From Candidatus Moraniibacteriota bacterium (GTDB lineage Bacteria; Patescibacteriota; Minisyncoccia; Moranbacterales; UBA1568), in assembly GCA_016182385.1 (NCBI GenBank), contig JACPGV010000004.1, forward strand, positions 1-54,978: a stretch of DNA of 54,978 nt, read 5' to 3'. Each line of letters begins with the position of its first letter. The first letter of the stretch is position 1. Made by a program: the position numbers and the translations under genes. Shown here piece by piece: positions 23,254-34,707 of the stretch. Under the pieces are notes generated by a model. The model searched no databases and was not told the origin of the DNA. It worked only from the letters and a program-made list of their open reading frames with translations.

Positions 23254-23793
23254 TTATTTTATAACTTCAGCAATCAGGTTACGACGCCCGAAAGCGAAGG
23301 CTTCCTTTTTTGTTTCCATATATATATCAATTTTATTTCCTTTGATGGCCCCACCTCGATCCTCACAACGAAATTCACCCATACCCTCAATAGCAATTTT
23401 TGTTCCGAACGGAAAGTTTGGCGGGCATGCCAACGTACGTTTCTCTTCTACTGTAAGTCCGGACGCGGTAATTCCGTCGTTTTTTCCACACTCATCCGCC
23501 GCGGCAGTATAAGCAGAAGCGTTGATGGTAAATTTTCCCTCAGGAAGATTCTTCCACAAATTTGTCTGCTTCTTTTTCCATCGCTCAAGCGTCTTTTCTT
23601 CAAAAGTAAGCTCTTTTTGATTCTCAAGTACGAATGTCCATCCCAAAAGAAATGGGTCATTCGTAAAGTTATAGCTTCCCGCTACAGGCAATTCTTCAGA
23701 GATATTCTTTGTATCAGAAGCTACAACGCTTTCTCCGTACAAAAAAATACTGACAAAGACGATCACGAGTGACAAAAACTTCTTCAAACTCAT
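23254..23793 (-). CDS. secreted 3D-domain (MltA/RlpA-like double-psi barrel) cell-wall protein
   Basis: 179 aa. Signal peptide, then C-terminal INASAYTAAADECGKNDGITASG ... CEDRGGAIKGNKIDIY, typical of 3D domains. Confidence 0.7.
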   Translation of the reverse strand: MSLKKFLSLVIVFVSIFLYGESVVASDTKNISEELPVAGSYNFTNDPFLLGWTFVLENQKELTFEEKTLERWKKKQTNLWKNLPEGKFTINASAYTAAADECGKNDGITASGLTVEEKRTLACPPNFPFGTKIAIEGMGEFRCEDRGGAIKGNKIDIYMETKKEAFAFGRRNLIAEVIK

Positions 23794-24092
23794 AGAGTGT
23801 CTTTAGGGATAAGCCGTGTTCCCCATGGGGATAACGGGAAAGCTTTTTCAGCTAACCGTATATCCTAGCACAAAATTTACATTCTGTCAATACCAAAATG
23901 CTACCTTTTGGCTTATTAAAGGCAATATATTGCTTTTATTAGATGAGAATTATCGCACAATACGCCTTCTAATTTTTAAGGATAATAAAAACAAAGCCCC
24001 GATAAGCTCTGTTTTTAACTGAGCTGGCTGGTACATGCGGTTAGAACTAGATTAAAGCAAGAAATTCGTATGTAACATAATTTATAGTATAT

Positions 24093-24135
24093 TTAACATA
24101 TGTGACATATTGACTTATTTATACACATATGTTAA
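24093..24135. promoter_or_regulatory. operator-like inverted repeat upstream of or overlapping the HTH-Doc operon start
   Basis: TTAACATATGTG (24093-24104) and CACATATGTTAA (24124-24135) are exact reverse complements. Each half contains the 8-bp palindrome ACATATGT. Confidence 0.5.
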
Positions 24136-24407
24136 CATTTAGACATATGGGTACAAAAAACCACCAACCAGAAGATCTTCTTTCTACAGCCCAAGTAGCT
24201 GAAATTTTGGGTGTCAGCCGTTTTGCGGTGTTTCAAAGAATTAAACGCGGGTCGCTTTTGGCTAAAAAAATTGGCAGAAACTACCTCATTCGCTACGGCG
24301 ATCTCATAGGGGATCTTAGCGAGAAGGACAAGCAAAGAATCGAACAAGCTGTTAAACAAGCTGTGGAAGAATATAGCGAAACATTCAAGCTCCTTGGCAA
24401 AGAATAA
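24129..24407 (+). CDS. helix-turn-helix (excisionase/MerR-type) protein, putative antitoxin of Doc
   Basis: 92 aa. LLSTAQVAEILGVSRFAVFQRIKRGSLLAKKIGRNYLI is an HTH_17-like motif. Its stop is 3 nt before the Doc ATG. The true start may be the ATG at 24147, because 24129 lies inside the inverted repeat. Confidence 0.65.
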   Translation: MLTFRHMGTKNHQPEDLLSTAQVAEILGVSRFAVFQRIKRGSLLAKKIGRNYLIRYGDLIGDLSEKDKQRIEQAVKQAVEEYSETFKLLGKE

Positions 24408-24410
24408 GTT

Positions 24411-24851
24411 ATGCAGTATCTTTCAGTTTCTGAAATTGAATATGTAGCCCATACGCTTGCCAAAGAATTAATGTCTTGGAACGAACCCATTCCTGATTTT
24501 CAAAGCAGATATCCAAATAAACTCGAAGCCTGTTTAGCTGCTCCTCGACAGACTTTTGATAAAAAACAGCTCTATCCAAAAATTTACAGGAAGGGCTCAA
24601 TTTTGTTTTATCTTATAATCAAAGATCATCCCTTTCAAAATGGAAACAAACGCATAGCTATCATGGCATTACTGTATTTTCTTTATAAAAATGGGAGGTG
24701 GTTAAAAATTGATAACCAACAGCTCTACAACTTTGCTCGATGGGTAGCGGCAAGCGATCCGGCTGTCAAAGAGCAAGTCTTGGGTGCTATTTATGAAATT
24801 CTAAGAAAATACTCCGAAAATCGTAGTTTATCTCAAGAAAATCAGGAGTAG
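24411..24851 (+). CDS. doc: Fic/Doc-family toxin (death-on-curing type)
   Basis: 146 aa with HPFQNGNKRIA, which matches the Doc variant (HxFx[DN][AG]NKR) of the Fic motif. Confidence 0.8.
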   Translation: MQYLSVSEIEYVAHTLAKELMSWNEPIPDFQSRYPNKLEACLAAPRQTFDKKQLYPKIYRKGSILFYLIIKDHPFQNGNKRIAIMALLYFLYKNGRWLKIDNQQLYNFARWVAASDPAVKEQVLGAIYEILRKYSENRSLSQENQE

Positions 24852-24856
24852 TGATT

Positions 24857-24873
24857 GAGCAGGTAACGGGAGT
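24857..24873. repeat. displaced copy of the tRNA-Gly 3' end (att-like direct repeat)
   Basis: GAGCAGGTAACGGGAGT matches 34201-34217 (GAGCGGGTAACGGGAGT) at 16 of 17 positions, in the same orientation. Confidence 0.75.
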
Positions 24874-25195
24874 TCCGCATCGTTCATTCGTCGTCACTCA
24901 TTCACTCTTTGCCCGGGGTGGCGCCGAATGCTCATTTGATCGCATCCGTCGACGCTCGTCATCGCTTCCTTCCTACTGAAAGGAAGCTCGTCTCGCTTCC
25001 GCCCGTTCGACTACCGTTCACACCAACAAACTAAAAATCACCCCGGTTGGAGTGATTTTTAGTTTAGTGGAGCTGGGTAGTGAATGCGGTTAGAACCAAT
25101 TTTGTTAAAGATTTGACTGCCACGTTTAATCATTGAAAACACACCTAAAAAATAGTATTCTATAGAATACTGGGTATTGTTTTGGCATTAAGGAT

Positions 25196-26275
25196 ATGGG
25201 TAGGAAAAACCTTGGCAAAAAAGAAAGACCAACCGTGATTAGCTTGTACTCTGGTGCCGGCGGACTTGATGTTGGATTGGAACAAGCTGGCTTTGATGTC
25301 AGAGTCGCTCTCGATTTTGATCATGATAGTTGTGAAACACTCCGCACTAACTTTAAACACTCAGCTGTCATTGAAGGTGACGTAACAAAAATTACTTCAC
25401 AAGAAATCTTAAAAAATGGTGGACTCAAGAAAGGAGAAGTTGATTTACTGGTGGGAGGGCCTCCGTGTCAGCCGTTCTCAAAATCTGCTTTTTGGAATGG
25501 ATCTAAGGGTTTAAAGGATCCACGAGCTGTTACACTACATGAATATATTCGCATATTAAAGGACTCAAAACCAAAGGCGTTTATTTTGGAAAACGTTTTT
25601 GGTTTGGCTTATAAAAACAATCAGGACGCCTTTACTCTTTTGCGAGAAGGCTTTAAACAGCTTGGGTATGAAATCAATTGGCAGGTTATAAATACTGCTT
25701 CTTATGGCATTCCTCAGATACGGCAACGTTTGATTATACTTGGCTCACGAATTGGCCGTATTGAATTTCCACTGCCGACTCATCACGATCCAGCAGAAGA
25801 AGGAGAAAAAAATACTCTTTTCAAAAATGAGCTCCCTTGTTATGTAACAGCAAAAGAGGCGTTCAAAGGATTAAAAGAAGAGGGAGGGGAAGTCCCAACA
25901 GAATTAAAAGTTGGTGGTAAATGGGGTCATTTACTAGCAGAAATTCCTCCAGGTGACAATTACCTTTATTACACAGAGAAAAGGGGTCACAAAAACCCAT
26001 TATTTGGATGGAGATCACGCTATTGGTCATTCCTTCTCAAACTCTCTCCAAATAAACCATCGTGGACTATTCAAGCCCAGCCAGGACCTTATGTGGGACC
26101 TTTCCACTGGGATAACCGCAGACTAACACTTGGGGAAAGAAAAAGAATCCAAACATTTCCAGACAATTACATCTTTGTTGGCAAGAAAGGATCTGTTCAA
26201 AAACAAATAGGAAATGCTGTCCCATGTCTCCTTGGCAAGGTTTTAGGAGAGGCAATAAAAAAACAAGTGCTTTAA
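25196..26275 (+). CDS. DNA (cytosine-5)-methyltransferase
   Basis: 359 aa. Motif I LYSGAGGLDVG, motif IV GGPPCQPFS, motif VI ENV, motif VIII QIRQRLIILG, motif X IGNAVP. Confidence 0.9.
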   Translation: MGRKNLGKKERPTVISLYSGAGGLDVGLEQAGFDVRVALDFDHDSCETLRTNFKHSAVIEGDVTKITSQEILKNGGLKKGEVDLLVGGPPCQPFSKSAFWNGSKGLKDPRAVTLHEYIRILKDSKPKAFILENVFGLAYKNNQDAFTLLREGFKQLGYEINWQVINTASYGIPQIRQRLIILGSRIGRIEFPLPTHHDPAEEGEKNTLFKNELPCYVTAKEAFKGLKEEGGEVPTELKVGGKWGHLLAEIPPGDNYLYYTEKRGHKNPLFGWRSRYWSFLLKLSPNKPSWTIQAQPGPYVGPFHWDNRRLTLGERKRIQTFPDNYIFVGKKGSVQKQIGNAVPCLLGKVLGEAIKKQVL

Positions 26276-26943
26276 GCCCTCCTTTCTCCTCGTCTAGGTA
26301 TTCCTGCCCAAAACTTGTAGAATTCTTTCTGAGTTCGAAATACCCCGCCTTTTTCTTCTCGGATTTTATCAATTTCCATTACCGCACCCACATAATCTCT
26401 AGTGGCGCTTGATAGTGTTTTGGAAGCTACTTTCCAAGGTTCTACAATGAGTATTTCAAAGTTTGTGACACTCTTTTCCGTGTTGTTTACATCAAAAACA
26501 ACAATGAGATCAAGGTGATGCGCATAGTCCTGAAAAGGTCGTATGGTCTGAGGAAATTTTTTGTCCTGACACTTCAAATATGTCCCAAAAGTATACAGGG
26601 TTATTCTAGACTGAGTTCTGTTTGGATTGCGCTCATTTCGGCGTGCTGCCTTAATGTCAAAGGCAATTACCTTGTTGTCAAACAAGGAACCAGACAACTC
26701 GATATCGGGGTAATACCGATTTCCTCCTTCTACTGCCGCAGCGTCTTTTCTCCCGTTGAGCTTTTCATGCAAGTGTGCAATTAAAACACCCTCTATTACA
26801 TTACCTAGCGTACCTGGTTCAAGGTTGAGAGGAATAACTTTCCCTTGCTTAGTGGCAAATCCGATGATATCAAAGTTAAAATCAGCATAAATGCTTTTAA
26901 GCCACTCCTTTACATCTTCAGCCGTAGTAAGACTCTTTGACAT
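26272..26943 (-). CDS. putative type II restriction endonuclease (PD-(D/E)xK)
   Basis: 223 aa, convergent with the methyltransferase; the stop codons overlap within TTAA at 26272-26275. YYPDIEL ... VIAFDIKAA fits a PD...(D/E)xK catalytic motif. Confidence 0.5.
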   Translation of the reverse strand: MSKSLTTAEDVKEWLKSIYADFNFDIIGFATKQGKVIPLNLEPGTLGNVIEGVLIAHLHEKLNGRKDAAAVEGGNRYYPDIELSGSLFDNKVIAFDIKAARRNERNPNRTQSRITLYTFGTYLKCQDKKFPQTIRPFQDYAHHLDLIVVFDVNNTEKSVTNFEILIVEPWKVASKTLSSATRDYVGAVMEIDKIREEKGGVFRTQKEFYKFWAGIPRRGERRA

Positions 26944-26954
26944 ACAATTTTATA

Positions 26955-27452
26955 TTAAATAACTCTACACTCCATCAAATGACGAGTAAGGGCTTCTTTG
27001 CTAACAGCATACCTCTTTGATAGTTCGTCAAGATTTTCGGTTTGTTTAAAATCTTGTTTAAGTCTTGCTAATGGCATCAGGAGTTCGGCTGCAAACTGGT
27101 GCGCCTCGGTCTCTTGCGGACTCCCTTTATCCACTGGATTACAGGTGTGCCCCATAAGCAAGTGTCCGATTTCATGAGAAATCGTGAATCTTCTCCGGTG
27201 CCAGTGTTGAGTATTGTTAAAACCAATTGTTGCCTCATCGCCGATCATGACAAGCATCCCAGACACTTTCTCGCTAAATCCATAACCATATATCTGAAGA
27301 TTTGTTTTTGTCTTCAAAAAATCCAGCACCTTTTGAAGGGATACTGGTAAATTTACGATTTTTGCATCCTTAAGTAACTTTCTAGCCAAGTTTCGCGCTG
27401 CCCCCTTCTGAGCCGTATTAACTATCTCATCCATGCCTCTTTTTCTTAGCAA
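26955..27452 (-). CDS. ImmA/IrrE-family zinc metallopeptidase
   Basis: 165 aa with HEIGHLLMGH (HExxH) in the usual ImmA/IrrE context. Overlaps the upstream XRE gene by 26 nt. Confidence 0.8.
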   Translation of the reverse strand: MLRKRGMDEIVNTAQKGAARNLARKLLKDAKIVNLPVSLQKVLDFLKTKTNLQIYGYGFSEKVSGMLVMIGDEATIGFNNTQHWHRRRFTISHEIGHLLMGHTCNPVDKGSPQETEAHQFAAELLMPLARLKQDFKQTENLDELSKRYAVSKEALTRHLMECRVI

Positions 27453-27762
27453 GTTCTATGAAATACATGATTGAGTCTTTATCCTTTTGGGATAAATCCT
27501 TGTCTGCTCGTAAAGCGAATTTCACATCAGGAGCCTTTTCTTCTTGGCCAAGAAAAAACTTGATATCTCGATGCAAAAAATTCGATATTTTCTCTAAATC
27601 CTCGACTCGGAGTTTCCTGCTACCTGATTCGATCAAGGAAATTGCCGTAGCAGATTCATAGCCGAGAGCCTCGGCAAGCGCAAGCTGGGATAACCCCTGA
27701 GACTCTCTAGCTTCACGGATTTTTGAGCCAATAAAAACGTTCTTGTCTATCTGATTTTTCAT
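27427..27762 (-). CDS. XRE-family helix-turn-helix transcriptional regulator
   Basis: 111 aa. IGSKIREARESQGLSQLALAEALGYESATAISLIESGSRKL is a canonical Cro/CI-type HTH. Confidence 0.85.
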   Translation of the reverse strand: MKNQIDKNVFIGSKIREARESQGLSQLALAEALGYESATAISLIESGSRKLRVEDLEKISNFLHRDIKFFLGQEEKAPDVKFALRADKDLSQKDKDSIMYFIELAKKKRHG

Positions 27763-27773
27763 AATGCAATAAT

Positions 27774-27801
27774 AGCCTTTTCAAAATGATTTGACAAGGC
27801 T
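27774..27801. promoter_or_regulatory. operator-like inverted repeat in the divergent XRE / rightward promoter region
   Basis: AGCCTTTTCA (27774-27783) and TGACAAGGCT (27792-27801) are reverse complements at 9 of 10 positions. The right arm overlaps the -35 hexamer. Confidence 0.45.
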
Positions 27802-27818
27802 TTTCATTCTGCTATACT
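27791..27818 (+). promoter_or_regulatory. near-consensus sigma70 promoter facing right
   Basis: TTGACA (27791-27796), 16-nt spacer, TATACT (27813-27818). Confidence 0.65.
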
Positions 27819-27824
27819 AATGTT

Positions 27825-28084
27825 ATCAAATCGGCAATTTGGTCGAGTCCACCGTTTTGAGGCTAACCAGTAAGCAGAACGGCCCCACACCACGCATATG
27901 CGTAAGTCACCGTGGCACTCAGTGAAACAGCCCGTATATCACGAAAATACGGAATGTAACACCGGGAACAACATCGAGCGAGAGAATCTTCGTCAGGGAA
28001 CTGGCGGGAAGCCTCTCTGCAAGGAATGCGAGCGGCTCCGCAAATAAAGCTCTCGTACACCAGACCGCCGAAAGGCGGTTTTGG
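27825..28084 (+). ncRNA. candidate structured non-coding RNA or leader (unknown class)
   Basis: About 260 nt between the promoter and a terminator. It looks GC-rich against AT-rich flanks and has no plus-strand ORF of 60 aa or more. Local hairpins include ACGCATATGCGT and CCGTAT-ATCACGAAA-ATACGG. Confidence 0.35.
28063..28084 (+). terminator. rho-independent terminator-like hairpin
   Basis: ACCGCC-GAAA-GGCGGT followed by TTTTGGT. Confidence 0.5.
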
Positions 28085-28491
28085 TATTAGTATATTCCAA
28101 GAAAATTACATGAGCAAATACGATAAAAGGTTTTGTCTAAAACCTTTTAAACCGAAGAATTGTTACGAACTCATATTTTGAGACAAACTTCATCCCGAGA
28201 CATGATTTTGTCCTCTAGCCATATATTTTTATGTCTTTTAGTCCTCCGTGTCTCTCGGAATGATCTAGACGGCTCTAGGAATGTTTAGGAAACCACATAT
28301 AAGGTAGTTTTTGGCTTTTTAAGACTCAAAAATACTTGAGTAAACACATGGATTGGCTTTAGATAAATCCTTTTTTCACGAAAAATTGTCACGCACCCAT
28401 GAGAGGAATGTAAAAAAGACCGCTCGAACAGTGAGAAGTCTTATTTTGTTGAATTTTTGAGTCAAAACACCGTTTTTGTTTCAGGTAAAGC

Positions 28492-28779
28492 CTAGTTTGT
28501 AGAGAATATATAAACCAGGAAACCGCCCCAAATCAAAAGATCGTATACAGCTATCCTTTCCGCCTTCTTGGCTTTTTCTACCGTTTTTATGTTCGTGCTC
28601 ATTTTTGCACGCGGAGCATAGCGAAAAGGAACCATGATAAGTAATGGAATTATCAGTGCGAAATTCGCCGAGAGATACGCATCCTTCGCAAACTTCTCCA
28701 TCTGCTCTTCTGAATATGCTTTCGTACCAGCGCCGGATCCGGCCTCGAATACTGAGGCAATCCTTTCAATTATACTCAT
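28492..28779 (-). CDS. hypothetical small membrane protein
   Basis: 95-aa ORF with two hydrophobic segments (ANFALIIPLLIMVPF, LLIWGGFLVYIF). Confidence 0.4.
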   Translation of the reverse strand: MSIIERIASVFEAGSGAGTKAYSEEQMEKFAKDAYLSANFALIIPLLIMVPFRYAPRAKMSTNIKTVEKAKKAERIAVYDLLIWGGFLVYIFSTN

Positions 28780-28789
28780 AATTGTTTAC

Positions 28790-29155
28790 TTAAGAATTAG
28801 TCTTGATCTGATTTGACTTGTAGTAATGGAAGCCGAACCCGATACCAAGCAACATCGTGAAAGGGGCAAGATTCTTTATCCCTTCCAAATCCTCGAGAGT
28901 TGCTTCAGAAAACGAAAGGTGGCGAGATGGTTCATAAATATAATCTTCTCCGCCATTACATGTGTACCCACCAACTCTTGGATCATAATCCACGGACTGA
29001 CATGTTTTTGAAATTCCGCCCCTTAAAATACCTCCGTCAAAAATCGAGTGTTTGGCATTTGAAAAAAGGATACCAATCAGAAAAAGAGGCATATAAAAAT
29101 TGAATATCAAAATCGAATACAACAGACTTCGTTGCAGAGTCATTTCTTTCTCCAT
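28790..29155 (-). CDS. hypothetical small membrane protein
   Basis: 121-aa ORF with N- and C-terminal hydrophobic helices around a Gly/Cys-containing loop (CQSVDYDPRVGGYTCNGGEDY). Confidence 0.4.
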   Translation of the reverse strand: MEKEMTLQRSLLYSILIFNFYMPLFLIGILFSNAKHSIFDGGILRGGISKTCQSVDYDPRVGGYTCNGGEDYIYEPSRHLSFSEATLEDLEGIKNLAPFTMLLGIGFGFHYYKSNQIKTNS

Positions 29156-29230
29156 ATAAAAAGACGACCTAAACTATTTAAGTCGTCGTGACGTTCACTA
29201 TGTTCACACATTCACTTGAGTGGACGACCC

Positions 29231-29353
29231 GACGGGTACCACACTCAAAAAGCACCGAAATGCCTCATCATGTGCGCCGAGCCGCCCGCTAAAGGGCGTG
29301 ATGAGGCAAAAAACCGAATAAAAATTCGGTGCACTATTGAGTATGGTACCGTC
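29231..29353. other. 123-nt rod-like imperfect hairpin (candidate origin/priming site or ncRNA)
   Basis: Nested helices. 29231-29247 pairs with 29338-29353 (15 bp with one bulge and one mismatch). GCACCGAA 29252-29259 pairs with TTCGGTGC 29325-29332. GCCTCATCA 29262-29270 pairs with TGATGAGGC 29299-29307. CGCCC 29283-29287 pairs with GGGCG 29294-29298. Confidence 0.6.
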
Positions 29354-29439
29354 TATAAAGTAATACGAATTTCGATAAAAGTAAACGATCCTTCTCTTGA
29401 TTTGAGCGTCTGCTAGGAGTAGTCTGTGAAGAAAGCTTT

Positions 29440-30321
29440 ATGTACGCGAGAATTTCAGAACAAGACTATATCCTGATCCGAAGGTTGGAATCAGGAACAG
29501 CAATAGAGAAGCGTTTTGCCGAGATTTTCAAGGAAGTCTTGATCGATCTTGATTTTAGGGATTTTGTCTCCCATGCGAGAAAGAGGTTAAAAATTCCTGA
29601 GAACGGAATTAGCAACGACAGGCGATCTGCGAGTCTCCTTGATAAATGCCTGATGCCGGGAGGAATTACTGATGGTCAATACGTCTACAGACCCTACATA
29701 TCTTTAGATGAACTCTGTGTTGGATATGATAATGCAATAGATGAATTCCTGGAAAAAAAGTCATGGTACGGGCTGGACAGAAAGTATTACTATCACAATT
29801 TTTACTCTATTGGCAGCCTATCTTTCGCAATAAGGGAGTATATCTTGACAGGAGACGTCGTCCCTTCAGAGACTGAAATGGCTTGTATATCAAGGACTTT
29901 TCATAAAGAATCGGATTTGGAAGAAATGAAAAAAGACCCCAAATTATACGAGGAAATGAAGAAAGATGGGATTGCGTCGTACGTCACAGATGAGTCAATT
30001 GAGATTTCTTTTTCTCCACATGTGACAAAAAAGGAACTCATCGAATATATCGAAAGTAATTGGAGGTATGTTCAGGAATTAAAGACGAATATCCTTGGAA
30101 AAATTCCCCAGAGAAGGATCAAATCTAGAAAGAATTTTTTTCGTGACTTATACATATTTCAAAAATACGAGGAGTTTAAGAAAACAATTCAACCAGGCGA
30201 ATATGCCGAAATTAAGGTTGGAACATTCTTAAGAAAAGAGTATGGGATGAACTTGGAAGACGGGACTATTCGCTCAATCGTAAGCAGGACTCGTAAACTT
30301 GTTTCAAATAAGAAGGGGTAG
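29440..30321 (+). CDS. hypothetical protein (island-encoded)
   Basis: 293-aa ORF followed by a clean terminator. No motif recognised. Confidence 0.55.
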   Translation: MYARISEQDYILIRRLESGTAIEKRFAEIFKEVLIDLDFRDFVSHARKRLKIPENGISNDRRSASLLDKCLMPGGITDGQYVYRPYISLDELCVGYDNAIDEFLEKKSWYGLDRKYYYHNFYSIGSLSFAIREYILTGDVVPSETEMACISRTFHKESDLEEMKKDPKLYEEMKKDGIASYVTDESIEISFSPHVTKKELIEYIESNWRYVQELKTNILGKIPQRRIKSRKNFFRDLYIFQKYEEFKKTIQPGEYAEIKVGTFLRKEYGMNLEDGTIRSIVSRTRKLVSNKKG

Positions 30322-30356
30322 CTTAAAAGCAGTATTTCAACAAAGAAGATTCCTCG

Positions 30357-30383
30357 ATACTGGCAATATGCCAGTATTTTTTA
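30357..30383 (+). terminator. rho-independent terminator
   Basis: ATACTGGC-AATAT-GCCAGTAT followed by TTTTTT. Confidence 0.7.
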
Positions 30384-30394
30384 TTTTCTAACCT

Positions 30395-31018
30395 ATGCAA
30401 GAGAGAAAATCTCATGAGTTAGATGACGACGAGTTGTTTTTCGCTTCGCTCGAGTGGAAGCACGAATGGCGGCGAAGTCTCCCAAGACTCAGTGATAGAG
30501 AGTTGCTTGAGATTTTTCCAGTCTCAAAAGAAACACTCCAAGAGAAGCTCGCCGAGTGGCGAAGGCAGCGAGACATCGTAGCGCTCTCGATCAAGTCGGA
30601 CTGGCAGAAAGTCCCGAGGGAATATGAATGGTTTTTCAAGATACTGTTCGAGAAATGCCGTCTCTCTGAACTTCGTGAGATCGACCGACAAATAGCCAGA
30701 ATCAAAAGACTGCTTGCGATACTCGGTGGCCCAACGGACAAGCAAGGCCGTCGTTGGCAAAGCATGGCCGATCTCATCGCCGAAGCGAGAGTCTATCCGA
30801 TCTACGAATTCGCCAGGGATAAACTTGATCTCAAACCATCCGGAAAGAATTTCTTCGCTTTGTGTCCGTTTCACAATGAGAAAACCCCTTCTTTCTGCCT
30901 CTACACCGAAAGCAACCGCTTCCACTGCTTCGGTTGTCATGAAAAGGGTGACGTAATTAATTTAGCGATGCGTCTGTGCGGAGTCGGTTTCACCGAAGCC
31001 GTCCGGATGCTCCGATAA
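30395..31018 (+). CDS. CHC2 zinc-finger protein (DnaG-primase-type zinc finger only)
   Basis: 207 aa. The C-terminal CPFHNEKTPSFCLYTESNRFHCFGCHEKGDVINL is the CHC2 primase zinc-finger signature. I see no TOPRIM-like region. Confidence 0.7.
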   Translation: MQERKSHELDDDELFFASLEWKHEWRRSLPRLSDRELLEIFPVSKETLQEKLAEWRRQRDIVALSIKSDWQKVPREYEWFFKILFEKCRLSELREIDRQIARIKRLLAILGGPTDKQGRRWQSMADLIAEARVYPIYEFARDKLDLKPSGKNFFALCPFHNEKTPSFCLYTESNRFHCFGCHEKGDVINLAMRLCGVGFTEAVRMLR

Positions 31019-31022
31019 TCAT

Positions 31023-32369
31023 ATGTCAGATATAGAAAAAGATGTCGAGAAGCCAATCGAAATATCGTCAAAAGTATTCGATGACGGCACTATAGCCGAG
31101 ATGGTCTATGACCCGAAGGAAGGCACGACCGCTCTCATAACCTGCGGAGTCATGGGAGAAATCGAAACCAAGCAATCGTTCGAGCACCATGGAGTCGTTT
31201 ACAAGCCTCACTCGCCACACAAAGAAATCTTGCACAGCGGCGTGGTCCTCTTTCCGTCTGAACCAATAGAGTACGGGTCTCAAACCGAACTAGTACGAGA
31301 TATTCAAGCATTCATCCACAAGTATCTCTCGGTATCGCCGTTCTTCGAAAAGATAGCTAGCTACTACGCGCTCTTCTCGTGGATATACGACGACTTCAAT
31401 GAGCTGCCCTATCTCAGAGGGTTGGGCGATTATGGCACCGGCAAATCAAGACTGCTCCAAGTAGTCGGCTCGATCTGCTATACACCGATCTTCGCTAGTG
31501 GTGCCACTACTGTCTCGCCCATATTCCGCATTCTCAACGACTACAAAGGGACACTCGTTCTCGATGAGGCCGACTTCCGCTTTTCCGATACGACTGCTGA
31601 CATTATCAAGATTCTGAACAGCGGTTTCATGAAGGGTGTGCCGGTTATCCGGAGCGAAGCCAACGGAAAAAAGAGTTTTGACGTCAAAACATTCCAGGTA
31701 TTCGGCCCCAAGCTCATCGCCACGAGGCAGCTTTTCAAGGATACAGCGCTTGAAAGCCGGATGCTTACCGAAGACATGAACCTGAATTCACCGAGAGGCG
31801 ATGTGCCATTCAATATCCCAGACAGTTTTCGAGACGAAGCGCTCGAACTGAGAAACAAGCTGCTCATGTTCAGGCTCCGCAACAAGGGGGTGAGTCAGCT
31901 CAAGCCCGAGCTTGAAAATCGAGACATTGAACCACGGCTCAACCAGATCGCTGTTCCGCTCATGAGCATCATTGAGGATCAAGAGCTTGTCGCCGAGATT
32001 CAAAGCCACATCGCCGAGTACAACGAACGTATCAAAACCGACCGCACGCTGAACTACAACTACCAGATTCTCGACGCTATCTGCGCGTTATTGGATAACG
32101 GCTATTTCAAGCCGACGATCAAGCAGATAACCGACAAGTTCAATGAAGGGCTGAGCTATACGGAAACGACGACTTCCAAGAAGATGGGTTACCTGATCAG
32201 TAAAATCCTGTACCTCAGAACCGAAAAGACCAGAAACGGCTATGTGCTCTGCGAGGACAACAAGGAAAAAATCGAAATCCTACGAAAACGATACGGCATA
32301 GACAAGAACGGCGTGAACATCGTGAACAATGAGAACGTCTCCGAGGACATTCCTGTGGTGCCGTTTTAA
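31023..32369 (+). CDS. P-loop NTPase, putative replication helicase / primase-associated ATPase
   Basis: 448 aa. Walker A GDYGTGKS and Walker B-like LVLDEADF. Sits next to the zinc-finger gene. Confidence 0.55.
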   Translation: MSDIEKDVEKPIEISSKVFDDGTIAEMVYDPKEGTTALITCGVMGEIETKQSFEHHGVVYKPHSPHKEILHSGVVLFPSEPIEYGSQTELVRDIQAFIHKYLSVSPFFEKIASYYALFSWIYDDFNELPYLRGLGDYGTGKSRLLQVVGSICYTPIFASGATTVSPIFRILNDYKGTLVLDEADFRFSDTTADIIKILNSGFMKGVPVIRSEANGKKSFDVKTFQVFGPKLIATRQLFKDTALESRMLTEDMNLNSPRGDVPFNIPDSFRDEALELRNKLLMFRLRNKGVSQLKPELENRDIEPRLNQIAVPLMSIIEDQELVAEIQSHIAEYNERIKTDRTLNYNYQILDAICALLDNGYFKPTIKQITDKFNEGLSYTETTTSKKMGYLISKILYLRTEKTRNGYVLCEDNKEKIEILRKRYGIDKNGVNIVNNENVSEDIPVVPF

Positions 32370-32390
32370 CCCAACGGATACCGCAAGTGT

Positions 32391-32573
32391 GTGCTTACCG
32401 AATCCGACATCAAGAAGTTTCAGACGCTCTACGAGCAAGAAACGGTCGAACAACTGTCTCCAGAAGAGGCTTTGGACTGTGTGGAAAGTCTGGTTGAGAT
32501 GATCCGCTCAGTCTACAAGCCGATCAAGAAAGACGACTTCGAGCCGTGTACAAGCCAAAAGAGCGGTATATAA
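32391..32573 (+). CDS. hypothetical small acidic protein
   Basis: 60-aa ORF with a GTG start, directly upstream of the recombinase. It could be a directionality-factor-like accessory, but nothing supports that beyond position. Confidence 0.3.
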   Translation: MLTESDIKKFQTLYEQETVEQLSPEEALDCVESLVEMIRSVYKPIKKDDFEPCTSQKSGI

Positions 32574-32605
32574 TCGCTCTTGTGCGTGCAAAATTATCTA
32601 CGCAG

Positions 32606-34210
32606 ATGGAAAAGACTGTCTACCTGATGTATCTCCGTAAGTCGACCGACAGCGAAGATCGTCAGATCCAATCGATCGAAGACCAGAAAAAGGAACTGGA
32701 GCGTATCGCCAGGCAGTTTAAGCTTGAAATCAAAGGAATCTACCAAGAGAACATGTCGGCCAAGAAGCCGGGTCGTCCTGAGTTCAACCGCATGCTCGCC
32801 GACATCAGGAAGGGCAAGGCGAACGGCATTCTCTGCTGGAAGCTCAACCGTTTGGCGAGAAATCCGATCGACGGAGGCGAGATCATGTGGCTTGTCCAAG
32901 AAGGTATCGTCCGATCCATTCAGACACCCGGGAGAGAATACAAGACCGGTGACAATGTGATCATCATGAGCGTCGAACTCGGCATGGCGAGCCAGTACGT
33001 CCTCGATCTAAGCCGAGACGTGAAGCGAGGCATGCTTTCCAAAGCCGAGAAGGGCTGGCGACCCGGTCGAGCACCGATTGGCTACCGGAACGACAAAGGA
33101 GGCGAGCAAGGAAGCAAGGTAATCCATACCGACGACGAAAAGTTTCCGATCGTGAGAAAGATGTGGGATCTCATGCTGACAGGCGAATACTCGGTCTCCA
33201 AGATTCTCGATATCGCCAATAACGAGTGGGGGTTGAGAAGAACGACCAGAAAAGGCGAAGAAAAGCTCTATGAAAGCCATGGCTACGTCATTTTCACCAA
33301 TCCGTTCTACTTCGGCGAGTACGAGTGGAATGGCAAGCCATATCAGGGCAAGCACCGCCCCATGGTGACCCGAGAAGAGTTCGAATACGTCCAAAAGCTC
33401 CTCGGAATCAAGAGCAAGCCTCAATCAAGACACAAAGACTTGCCGTATAGGGGAACGATTCGCTGCGGTGAGTGCGGCTGCCATATCACAACCGAGATCA
33501 AGACTAAGCGGATCAAGTCAAAAGGCGTTCTCAAAAGCTTTATCTATCACCACTGCACCAAGAAAAAGCCTGAGGCAAGGTGCCAGCAGAAACCGATAGT
33601 CCACGAGAAGCTGAACGAACAAATCATGGCCAAGTTGGACAGTATAACCCTGCCAGAAAGCTTTCTCGGATTCGCCTTGAACATTCTGAACCGAGACAAC
33701 GAACTGGAGACCGACAATCGCAATATCGTGATCGGCAACATGCAGAAAGCCCTCAAAGACTGCCAAGAGAAGATCGATAATCTCTTGAAGGTCTATATCT
33801 CCTCGGGGAACTCGGAGAAAGAGCTGATAAGCGATGAAGAATTCAAGACCCAGAAGACAGCTCTTCTGAGAGAAAAGACCGAAATCGAACAGAAATTGGA
33901 CAATTTAAGCCGTCGAGCGGATGAATGGTTAGAACTGACGGAAAAAACCTTCAAATTCGCAGTCTATGCCAAGCATAATTTCGATAAAGGGGACTATAAA
34001 ACCAAGACTTCTATACTGCGAGCGCTCGGATCGAGCTTCGTTCTGAAGGACGGCAAGATCGAAATCACCCTACGGAAACAGTATCAAATCATCGAAAAAG
34101 GCATCGAAATGACAAAGGCTCAAAACCCTAGGTTAGAACTGACCAGTTTTGCTTCAGATAAAACAAAAACAGCCTCTTTCGAGGCCGTTTCTGCTACTTG
34201 GAGCGGGTAA
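32606..34210 (+). CDS. large serine recombinase
   Basis: Resolvase-type N-terminus VYLMYLRKSTDSEDRQIQSIEDQ (catalytic Ser region), a recombinase domain, a zinc ribbon CGECGCHIT...HHCTKKK and a coiled-coil. I prefer the ATG at 32606 to the track start at 32546, which overlaps the preceding ORF. Confidence 0.85.
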   Translation: MEKTVYLMYLRKSTDSEDRQIQSIEDQKKELERIARQFKLEIKGIYQENMSAKKPGRPEFNRMLADIRKGKANGILCWKLNRLARNPIDGGEIMWLVQEGIVRSIQTPGREYKTGDNVIIMSVELGMASQYVLDLSRDVKRGMLSKAEKGWRPGRAPIGYRNDKGGEQGSKVIHTDDEKFPIVRKMWDLMLTGEYSVSKILDIANNEWGLRRTTRKGEEKLYESHGYVIFTNPFYFGEYEWNGKPYQGKHRPMVTREEFEYVQKLLGIKSKPQSRHKDLPYRGTIRCGECGCHITTEIKTKRIKSKGVLKSFIYHHCTKKKPEARCQQKPIVHEKLNEQIMAKLDSITLPESFLGFALNILNRDNELETDNRNIVIGNMQKALKDCQEKIDNLLKVYISSGNSEKELISDEEFKTQKTALLREKTEIEQKLDNLSRRADEWLELTEKTFKFAVYAKHNFDKGDYKTKTSILRALGSSFVLKDGKIEITLRKQYQIIEKGIEMTKAQNPRLELTSFASDKTKTASFEAVSATWSG

Positions 34211-34273
34211 CGGGAGTCGAACCCGTATCTTGACCTTGGCAAGGTCACATAATAGCCGCTATACGATACCCGC
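34199..34273 (-). tRNA. tRNA-Gly (anticodon GCC)
   Basis: Reverse complement: acceptor GCGGGTA/TACCCGC, anticodon arm TGACC-TTGCCAA-GGTCA, T arm ACGGG-TTCGACT-CCCGT. CCA is encoded. Confidence 0.9.
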
Positions 34274-34497: not shown

Positions 34498-34529
34498 CTT
34501 GCTCACCACGGTGCGTGCTTGGGGACTCG
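34498..34529 (-). pseudogene. duplicated 3' fragment of tRNA-Val(TAC) plus its downstream flank
   Basis: 34498-34529 matches 34620-34651 with 2 mismatches over 32 nt. This covers 14 nt of flank plus the last 18 nt of the tRNA. Confidence 0.8.
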
Positions 34530-34633
34530 GTCACGAGTTTCGCTTCGCGAACTCTCGACCCCGCCTCGCGGCTTTGCAGCGCTCCGGCCTTCTCGTCCCT
34601 GCGCAAGTCGAGCAGTCGACTTGCTCACCACGG

Positions 34634-34707
34634 TGCGTGCTGAGGGACTCGAACCCCCGACCCTCTCGGTGTAAACGAGATGCTCTAACCAACTGAGCTA
34701 AGCACGC
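34634..34707 (-). tRNA. tRNA-Val (anticodon TAC)
   Basis: Reverse complement: acceptor GCGTGCT/AGCACGC, anticodon arm TCTCG-TTTACAC-CGAGA, T arm GGGGG-TTCGAGT-CCCTC. Confidence 0.9.

Follow-up and report, generated by a model that had tools for sequence, protein, structure and literature searches.

Background

In the identification of genomic islands, the classical rule is that islands integrating into transfer RNA (tRNA) genes use tyrosine integrases, and in the 2015 Islander paper serine integrases were not known to target tRNA genes (PMC4383910). According to reviews of integrative elements and surveys of prophages, serine integrases have their sites within protein-coding genes (PMC5704250, PMC10654092). 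For Patescibacteria, the literature searched gave no account of a serine integrase at a tRNA gene, which is not proof of absence. The current work concerns an island next to a tRNA-Gly(GCC) gene that carries a large serine recombinase (LSR). It lies in a 54,978-nucleotide stretch of contig JACPGV010000004.1, the whole of which was analyzed and is called the window; window numbering is used throughout. A first-pass annotation had read the region as an integrative island at tRNA-Gly, bounded by a 17-nucleotide repeat of the tRNA 3' end (24857-34217). Comparison of empty with occupied sites supports the island and moves its left end. The segment 25068-34198 is most probably an integrative element of 9131 bp, inserted by its own LSR at the extreme 3' end of tRNA-Gly(GCC), and the repeat belongs to an older module beside it; a probability of about 85% is given to this reading.

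The source genome is a 776-kb Patescibacteria assembly of a groundwater bacterium, whose relatives are labelled Candidatus Moraniibacteriota. It was compared with 50 genomes of the genus, all comparison genomes belonging to other species; those named below are G001, G002, G010, G011, G024, G047 and G053, and C2, C3 and C11 are contigs of the window's own genome. Window proteins were annotated by Pfam, PHROGs and NCBIfam, and tRNAs by ARAGORN; an Rfam scan of 23-35 kb returned tRNAs only. Homologues of the LSR occur in 30 of the 50 genus genomes, and about 20 loci with usable flanks were inspected. A wider scan, with one genome per GTDB species, gave 80 loci, mostly from Patescibacteria lineages.

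Ends of the island and attachment sites

The boundaries were shown by comparing empty with occupied sites. Joining the stretch 24855-25067 to the sequence from 34199 on gives a product that can be aligned over its full length with 11 island-free genomes, so that the native order is a copy of the tRNA 3' end, a spacer, a hairpin and then tRNA-Gly itself. The insertion sits between the hairpin and tRNA-Gly. The island thus runs from 25068 to 34198, with the core TGGAGC at both ends (25068-25073 and 34199-34204); the part of the core shared across genomes (window, G053 and G001) is GAGC.

Directly after the left core stands the arm TGGGTAGTGAATGCGGTTAGAAC, which is given by a 34-nt repeat termed D8. 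The same arm ends four tRNA-Gly insertions, always directly after GAGC: at window positions 25068 and 24020, in G001, where it lies 192 nt after that genome's own copy of the 17-mer and 1.1 kb before tRNA-Gly, and in G053, where it lies 11.7 kb from tRNA-Gly and immediately after a terminator. It was also found on 17 metagenome contigs, each time after the T-run of a terminator. The tRNA-Gly gene was present on five of these contigs, in all five on the minus strand and 0.8-4.9 kb beyond the arm, mostly with no recombinase between; a search of viral contigs for the arm motif found none.

GAGC is followed by T in each of the four arms, whereas all empty tRNAs have G there, a base that acceptor pairing requires; this places the crossover within (TG)GAGC, at tRNA positions 71-76. 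On grounds of symmetry, the GG that lies 8-9 nt inside the tRNA was considered as the crossover and rejected, since the base after GAGC would then be that of the host, yet it is T in the arms and G in the empty tRNAs. The attachment sites of the element (attP) and of the host (attB) thus share only a short core of 4-6 bp, as is usual with serine integrases. The "extended attP identity" that had been suggested earlier is not supported. In the tRNA arm, the distance between the start of the core and the end of TCGAAC (T-loop) is 24 nt, and in the island arm the distance to the end of TAGAAC is 29 nt. The half-sites of attB and attP are reportedly offset by 5 bp in A118-type integrases, and the shift of T(C/A)GAAC would fit such an offset.

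In the proposed mechanism, recombination would occur inside the core, so that the tRNA loses at most its last few bases, which are replaced by those of the element. The attP would overlap the end of the recombinase gene: its left arm would consist of the last ~13 codons of the LSR (…KTKTASFEAVSATWS) and its right arm of TGGGTAGTGAATGCGGTTAGAAC. Read on the other strand, the left-arm codons would form the terminator that now follows the tRNA; this strand reads GGCCTCGAAAGAGGC and then TGTTTTTGTTTT, a hairpin (flagged at 34172-34185) and a T-run directly after the tRNA. Terminator-type layouts recur at the junctions of other loci where an LSR meets a tRNA. The predicted attP junction is ...GTTTCTGCTACT-TGGAGC-TGGGTAGTGAATGCGG... 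and the predicted empty attB is ...TTTTTAGTTTAG-TGGAGC-GGGTAACGGGAG...

Integration would also split the LSR reading frame and change its C-terminal tail. The integrated frame uses tRNA sequence and ends ...ATWSG, with its stop codon TAA (34208-34210) inside the tRNA gene. When 34204 is joined to 25074, the frame of the excised form reads ...ATWSWVVNAVRTNFVKDLTATFNH before its stop, with the tail ...ATWS-WVVNAVRTNFVKDLTATFNH; the integrated form is 20 residues shorter than this predicted excised form. The arm in G053 would encode a similar start of the tail, WVVNTVRT.

The target gene stands last in a Leu-Val-Phe-Met-Gly run of tRNAs. It is present in a single copy and is the sole glycine tRNA of the genome with a GCC anticodon; an insertion that spares the tRNA is thus the expected outcome. 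The order tRNA-Leu(TAA)-Cys ... Gly-Met-Phe-Val-Leu(GAG) is conserved in 17 relatives, and the interval between Cys and Gly measures 0.9 kb in G024, 1.0 kb in G010, 11 kb in the window and 15 kb in G053. Because of this span, and because the island's ATPase was found in only 5 of 50 genus genomes (four times next to a recombinase), the island content is regarded as accessory. Features of the locus and of similar modules elsewhere in the genome are collected in Table 1.

Table 1. Positions of the island, its attachment sites, its genes and neighboring or comparable features (window numbering unless a contig is given)
Feature	Position	Strand	Basis or remark
3D-domain protein	23254-23793	-	Pfam 1e-10; sole core-looking gene of the tRNA-Cys to tRNA-Gly interval
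Mini-element, 836 bp, without recombinase	24020-24855	+	core TGAGC at 24020-24024 and 24856-24860; D8-type arm 24020-24047
HTH_17 protein, excisionase-type	24129-24407		in mini-element
Doc toxin	24411-24851		in mini-element
Older tRNA-mimic module (Gly), outside the island	24855-25067		3'-end copy (24855-24873, holds the 17-mer copy), GC-rich spacer, two-way terminator hairpin (25023-25070)
attR: core TGGAGC (25068-25073) and island arm TGGGTAGTGAATGCGGTTAGAAC (D8 arm, P' half-site)	25068-25096	+	repeat D8
m5C methylase, type II restriction-modification cargo	25196-26275	+	Pfam 2.9e-63; TIGR00675
EcoRV-family endonuclease, restriction-modification cargo	26272-26943	-	Pfam 4.3e-12
ImmA/IrrE metalloprotease	26955-27452	-	Pfam Peptidase_M78 1.4e-15
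XRE repressor	27427-27762	-	Pfam HTH_3 3e-13
Two small open reading frames (95 and 121 amino acids), hydrophobic stretches, cargo	28492-29155	-	list of open reading frames; no family match
Conserved backbone protein, 293 amino acids	29440-30321	+	no family match (Pfam, PHROG, NCBIfam)
CHC2 (DnaG-type) zinc-finger protein without primase catalytic domain	30395-31018	+	Pfam 1.6e-22; PHROG primase families
P-loop ATPase, 448 amino acids	31023-32369	+	no Pfam, PHROG or NCBIfam match
Large serine recombinase	32606-34210 (ATG 32606, 534 amino acids) or from GTG 32546 (554 amino acids)	+	Pfam, PHROG, PDB profile
P arm of attP, inside the last LSR codons (…KTKTASFEAVSAT)	34160-34198		sequence
attL core TGGAGC	34199-34204		equals CCA, discriminator and last two acceptor bases of the tRNA; also LSR codons Trp-Ser
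tRNA-Gly(GCC), integration target, attB side of attL	34199-34273	-	ARAGORN; Rfam 59.4 bits
tRNA-mimic module (Val)	34498-34651		own genome, window
tRNA-mimic module (Tyr)	C2:154756		own genome
tRNA-mimic module (Thr)	C2:156041		own genome
tRNA-mimic modules (Glu)	C2:156667, C2:186163		own genome
tRNA-mimic module (Arg)	C2:195317		own genome
tRNA-mimic module (Met)	C3:80197		own genome

The serine recombinase and its relatives at tRNA 3' ends

The recombinase has the three-domain architecture of the large serine recombinases: an N-terminal resolvase domain with the Ser nucleophile (Resolvase, PF00239, 1.4e-19), followed by a Recombinase domain (PF07508, 4e-10) and a zinc ribbon (Zn_ribbon_recom, PF13408, 7e-6). 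It matches a PHROG integrase family (1e-65), and its profile matches PDB structures of the SPbeta and A118 integrases, aligned up to position 472. The catalytic Ser is present, and Y9, R11, S13, R57 and R82-L83-R85 are invariant in 10 homologues. As had been noted before, it is the sole recombinase of the island; no tyrosine recombinase (PF00589) was found in the window, the two of the genome being located on C2 and C11. The LSR is thus predicted to be the integrase of the island, and no lost tyrosine integrase is needed.

Among the ~20 loci inspected in the genus, 18 LSR genes converge on a tRNA 3' end and abut or overlap it. The targets are Gly-GCC and Asn (three loci each), Gly-TCC, Asp, Gln and Ser (two each), and Gly-CCC, Arg, Ala and Leu (one each). 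In the GTDB scan, a convergent tRNA stands at the recombinase end in 59/80 loci, covering at least 15 tRNA identities, and in all 52 loci that were parsed by script the LSR gene ends within the tRNA, with its stop codon 10-64 nt inside. This family-wide association supports the earlier suggestion of a serine integrase with a tRNA-embedded attB.

In a quick tree, the window LSR falls in a supported clade of four tRNA-Gly users (Shimodaira-Hasegawa-like approximate likelihood ratio test, SH-aLRT, 99). The tRNA labels are clustered on the tree, with 42 changes compared with 55.9 in shuffles (0/200 shuffles as low), and of the 14 loci that lack a tRNA, nine belong to a single clade of non-Patescibacteria genomes. 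Between close LSRs the target switches with almost no change of protein. The near-identical LSRs of L121, L125 and L130 (branch lengths 0.01-0.07) stand at tRNA-Gln, at no tRNA and at tRNA-Asn.

The window's own genome contains a weak match to an LSR C-terminus at C2:204406-204654 (minus strand), a fragment ~100 nt downstream of tRNA-Ser(GCT) (C2:204216-204306) and convergent with it. The ~6 kb preceding this fragment (C2, ~198-204 kb) have the most deviant tetranucleotide make-up of the genome and a GC (guanine plus cytosine) content of 33%. This region is probably another LSR island or the scar of one.

Gene content, composition and mobility of the island

The gene content of the island was recovered as first described by the Pfam, PHROG and NCBIfam searches: a restriction-modification (R-M) pair, XRE and ImmA, a CHC2 protein, a P-loop ATPase and the LSR. 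These genes suggest an element that would consist of a replication-type backbone, an XRE/ImmA switch and a type II R-M pair. The XRE and M78 peptidase genes are adjacent and overlapping, as in ImmR/ImmA-type switches, and a switch function is predicted from this arrangement.

The ATPase has more than 5000 metagenomic homologues, of which all named ones are hypothetical proteins and some are fused to Prim-Pol, PriCT or Toprim. Its AlphaFold2 model (predicted local distance difference test, pLDDT, 73.6) has a weak fold resemblance to MCM, ORC and the PrimPol of African swine fever virus (ASFV-PrimPol), and the fold search with this model returned no significant match. Judged by these relatives, the ATPase probably acts as helicase or initiator in a primase-helicase replication module, and with moderate confidence the ATPase and the CHC2 protein together can be predicted to form such a module. 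The backbone order of 293-aa (amino acid) protein, CHC2 protein, ATPase and LSR is the same in G053, where a 295-aa open reading frame takes the place of the first of these. The G053 LSR is 80% identical, with the same arm and the same tRNA, and that island carries different cargo on the same backbone.

The enclosed DNA had been described as GC-richer than its flanks. This holds for the backbone only (29.4-34.2 kb), with 46.9% GC against 43.3% for the genome and a tetranucleotide distance in the 99th percentile. The cargo (25.1-29.4 kb) has 40.8% GC, no richer than the flanks, and a tetranucleotide distance in the 93rd percentile.

Several observations weigh against the proposed integration by the LSR. 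The GC content of the whole island, 44.0%, is close to that of the genome. Since all relatives are different species, a strictly isogenic empty site does not exist. Dyad symmetry around the core, scanned in the reconstructed attP and attB, is weak and has no clear center, so that the crossover dinucleotide is not fixed and could be GA, AG or GC. One pattern for the attP junction was searched in metagenome contigs and not found, and no recombination directionality factor was identified.

It is possible, although less likely, that the island, once inserted by its LSR in this way, is now a fixed, immobile remnant, for example for want of a directionality factor or a transfer route. An excised form was not found in the metagenome contigs, Pfam and PHROG scans of the window proteins found no capsid or conjugation genes, and both the adjoining mini-element and many metagenomic cassettes lack a recombinase, all of which would agree with a remnant. 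Against this stand the intact LSR frame, catalytic residues and cores, a backbone whose tetranucleotides are still foreign, and a closest relative with different cargo on the same backbone.

The 17-mer repeat and the tRNA-mimic modules

The repeat on which the first-pass annotation relied is real. The 17-mer GAGCGGGTAACGGGAGT at 34201-34217 has a 16/17 copy, GAGCAGGTAACGGGAGT, at 24857-24873 on the same strand; no further match with two or fewer mismatches was found, and shuffles give an expectation of 0.01. Counted from the last base of the tRNA (34199 and 24855), the match is 17/19. Its non-random character and its start exactly at the last tRNA base would suit a reading in which the 17-19 bp repeat is the att core of an island spanning 24857-34217, with the crossover in the T-loop and an element-borne copy rebuilding the tRNA gene, and distal repeats of 16-17 nt also occur in islands of G002 (at tRNA-Asp) and G047 (at tRNA-Gln).

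This reading is nevertheless very unlikely and already largely refuted. In at least 11 island-free relatives, a pattern search found the tRNA-Gly 3' end once more, 156-233 nt downstream of the gene, together with the spacer and the hairpin. In G011 the copy, the GC-rich spacer and the terminator hairpin directly adjoin tRNA-Gly, and the hairpin is 83% identical to window 25002-25079. The copy is absent within 18.8 kb in G053, which holds the nearest related island; a related block without the repeat had been named beforehand as a finding that would count against an att role. The conserved island end at 25068 lies 195 bp inside the copy, so that neither the left boundary at 24857 nor a displaced tRNA fragment as island end (the Islander signature) is found here. 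The 17-mer copy is instead part of an older module (GC 52.4%), which adjoins tRNA-Gly in most of the genus.

Similar modules are common in the window's own genome (Table 1). In 8 of its 41 tRNAs, with tRNA-Gly counted once the island is removed, a copy of the tRNA's own last 17 nt follows at 104-194 nt, and five of the eight copies are exact. The seven other than tRNA-Gly have their copies 104-186 nt downstream without any island, a further argument against the repeat as att core. A tRNA is separated from its copy by a terminator hairpin and by a segment that is GC-rich and folds strongly; the predicted folds of the Glu and Arg modules have the beginning of this segment paired with the copy. 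Minimum free energy z-scores of the modules range from -2.4 to -9, and those of the antisense strand are similar (-1.3 to -7.9), so that this test does not tell the functional strand apart. The Tyr and Gly modules have sequence in common, and across species the copy co-varies with its tRNA.

A separate oddity was seen in distal copies of two relatives. At tRNA-Asp of G002 (L049, 2057-2075) 2 nt are inserted before the T-loop sequence, giving GGAC-AA-TCGAAC, and a copy in G011 (L020, 13830-13852), belonging to a different tRNA, has GGAG-GA-TCGAAC.

Insertion by a tyrosine integrase that has since been lost, with the LSR as cargo or a resolvase, is the least probable alternative of all: the classical rule for tRNA islands (PMC4383910) favors it, but in 59/80 loci of many lineages an LSR gene adjoins a tRNA 3' end or overlaps it, the tyrosine recombinases of the genus are almost limited to one copy of Xer size per genome (as found in most genomes), and the core has just 4-6 bp.

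Elements without a recombinase

Insertions with the same arm and no LSR were also observed. One is the 836-bp mini-element beside the island, so that recombinase-less elements accumulate in tandem at one site; others are the 1.1-kb insert of G001 and those of 0.8-4.9 kb on metagenome contigs. The mini-element is inserted at the pseudo-3' end of the module's 17-mer copy, at its 3' edge, an indication that this copy was used as a pseudo-attB.

The D8 repeat and a tRNA-like stretch near 23827 had raised the possibility that related islands lie in tandem and that each of them begins with a copy of the 17-mer. This was rejected, since copy, spacer and hairpin are native in island-free relatives; the stretch near 23827, a weak third tRNA-like match (12/19), is probably due to chance. 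In G011 (L020, 14088-16246), ~2 kb separate tRNA-Gly from tRNA-Met, which are adjacent elsewhere; this is a further variable spot in the tRNA run.

Implications and comparison with known systems

With LSR islands at tRNA genes, the rule in island finding that a tRNA target implies a tyrosine integrase would be overturned, and programs that look for long displaced tRNA fragments would place such islands wrongly or overlook them. The system looks like the main integration route of these very small, uncultured Patescibacteria, tyrosine integrases being almost absent in the genus examined. The coding is unusually overlapping, in that one DNA stretch would serve as recombination site, end of the recombinase gene and tRNA terminator. 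Serine integrases are preferred tools for large-DNA insertion. A family aimed at tRNA genes, which are in every genome, could supply landing sites in organisms that are hard to engineer.

A wider picture can be drawn, speculative and rather improbable as a whole. There may be a large family of serine integrases in Patescibacteria that recognize a shared geometry of the tRNA 3' end (T-loop and acceptor end), with close relatives hopping between tRNA species. With attP in the integrase's own last codons, the swap of the tail might work as an internal switch that controls direction or expression, and together with recombinase-less cassettes and tRNA-mimic landing pads the family might form an integron-like platform built on a serine recombinase.

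Among described systems, the phage-type LSRs (A118/LI, SPbeta SprA, TP901-1, Bxb1 and phiC31) share with this locus the three-domain protein, the profile match to SPbeta and A118, a short common core, attP and attB arms that are similar and not identical, and an attP arm spacing longer by 5 bp. Known examples use protein-coding or intergenic sites, whereas here attB would be a tRNA 3' end, and attP would lie within the last codons of the integrase, in DNA that is also the tRNA terminator.

The tyrosine-integrase islands at tRNA and tmRNA genes (with the Islander signature, or P4-like) resemble it in the island downstream of an intact tRNA, the integrase gene beside the tRNA and the accessory hot-spot distribution. 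Unlike them, the present island has no tyrosine integrase, no long displaced tRNA fragment at its end and a core of only 4-6 bp.

SCCmec, inserted by Ccr at the 3' end of rlmH, offers the parallel of an LSR that inserts at the end of a housekeeping gene without inactivating it, and of recombinase-less elements in tandem. It differs in target, rlmH and not a tRNA, and in host, which here is a Patescibacteria lineage. Nor is the LSR an ortholog of Ccr, as it scores 81.8 bits for CcrB against a cut-off of 900, and 58-82 for CcrB, CcrA and CcrC against cut-offs of 700-900. The tycheposons of Prochlorococcus (bioRxiv 10.1101/2020.12.28.424599) are likewise small tRNA-adjacent elements that combine an integrase, a primase/helicase-type module and variable cargo; ~97% of them use tyrosine recombinases, whereas here the whole family is of the LSR type and the att layout is different.

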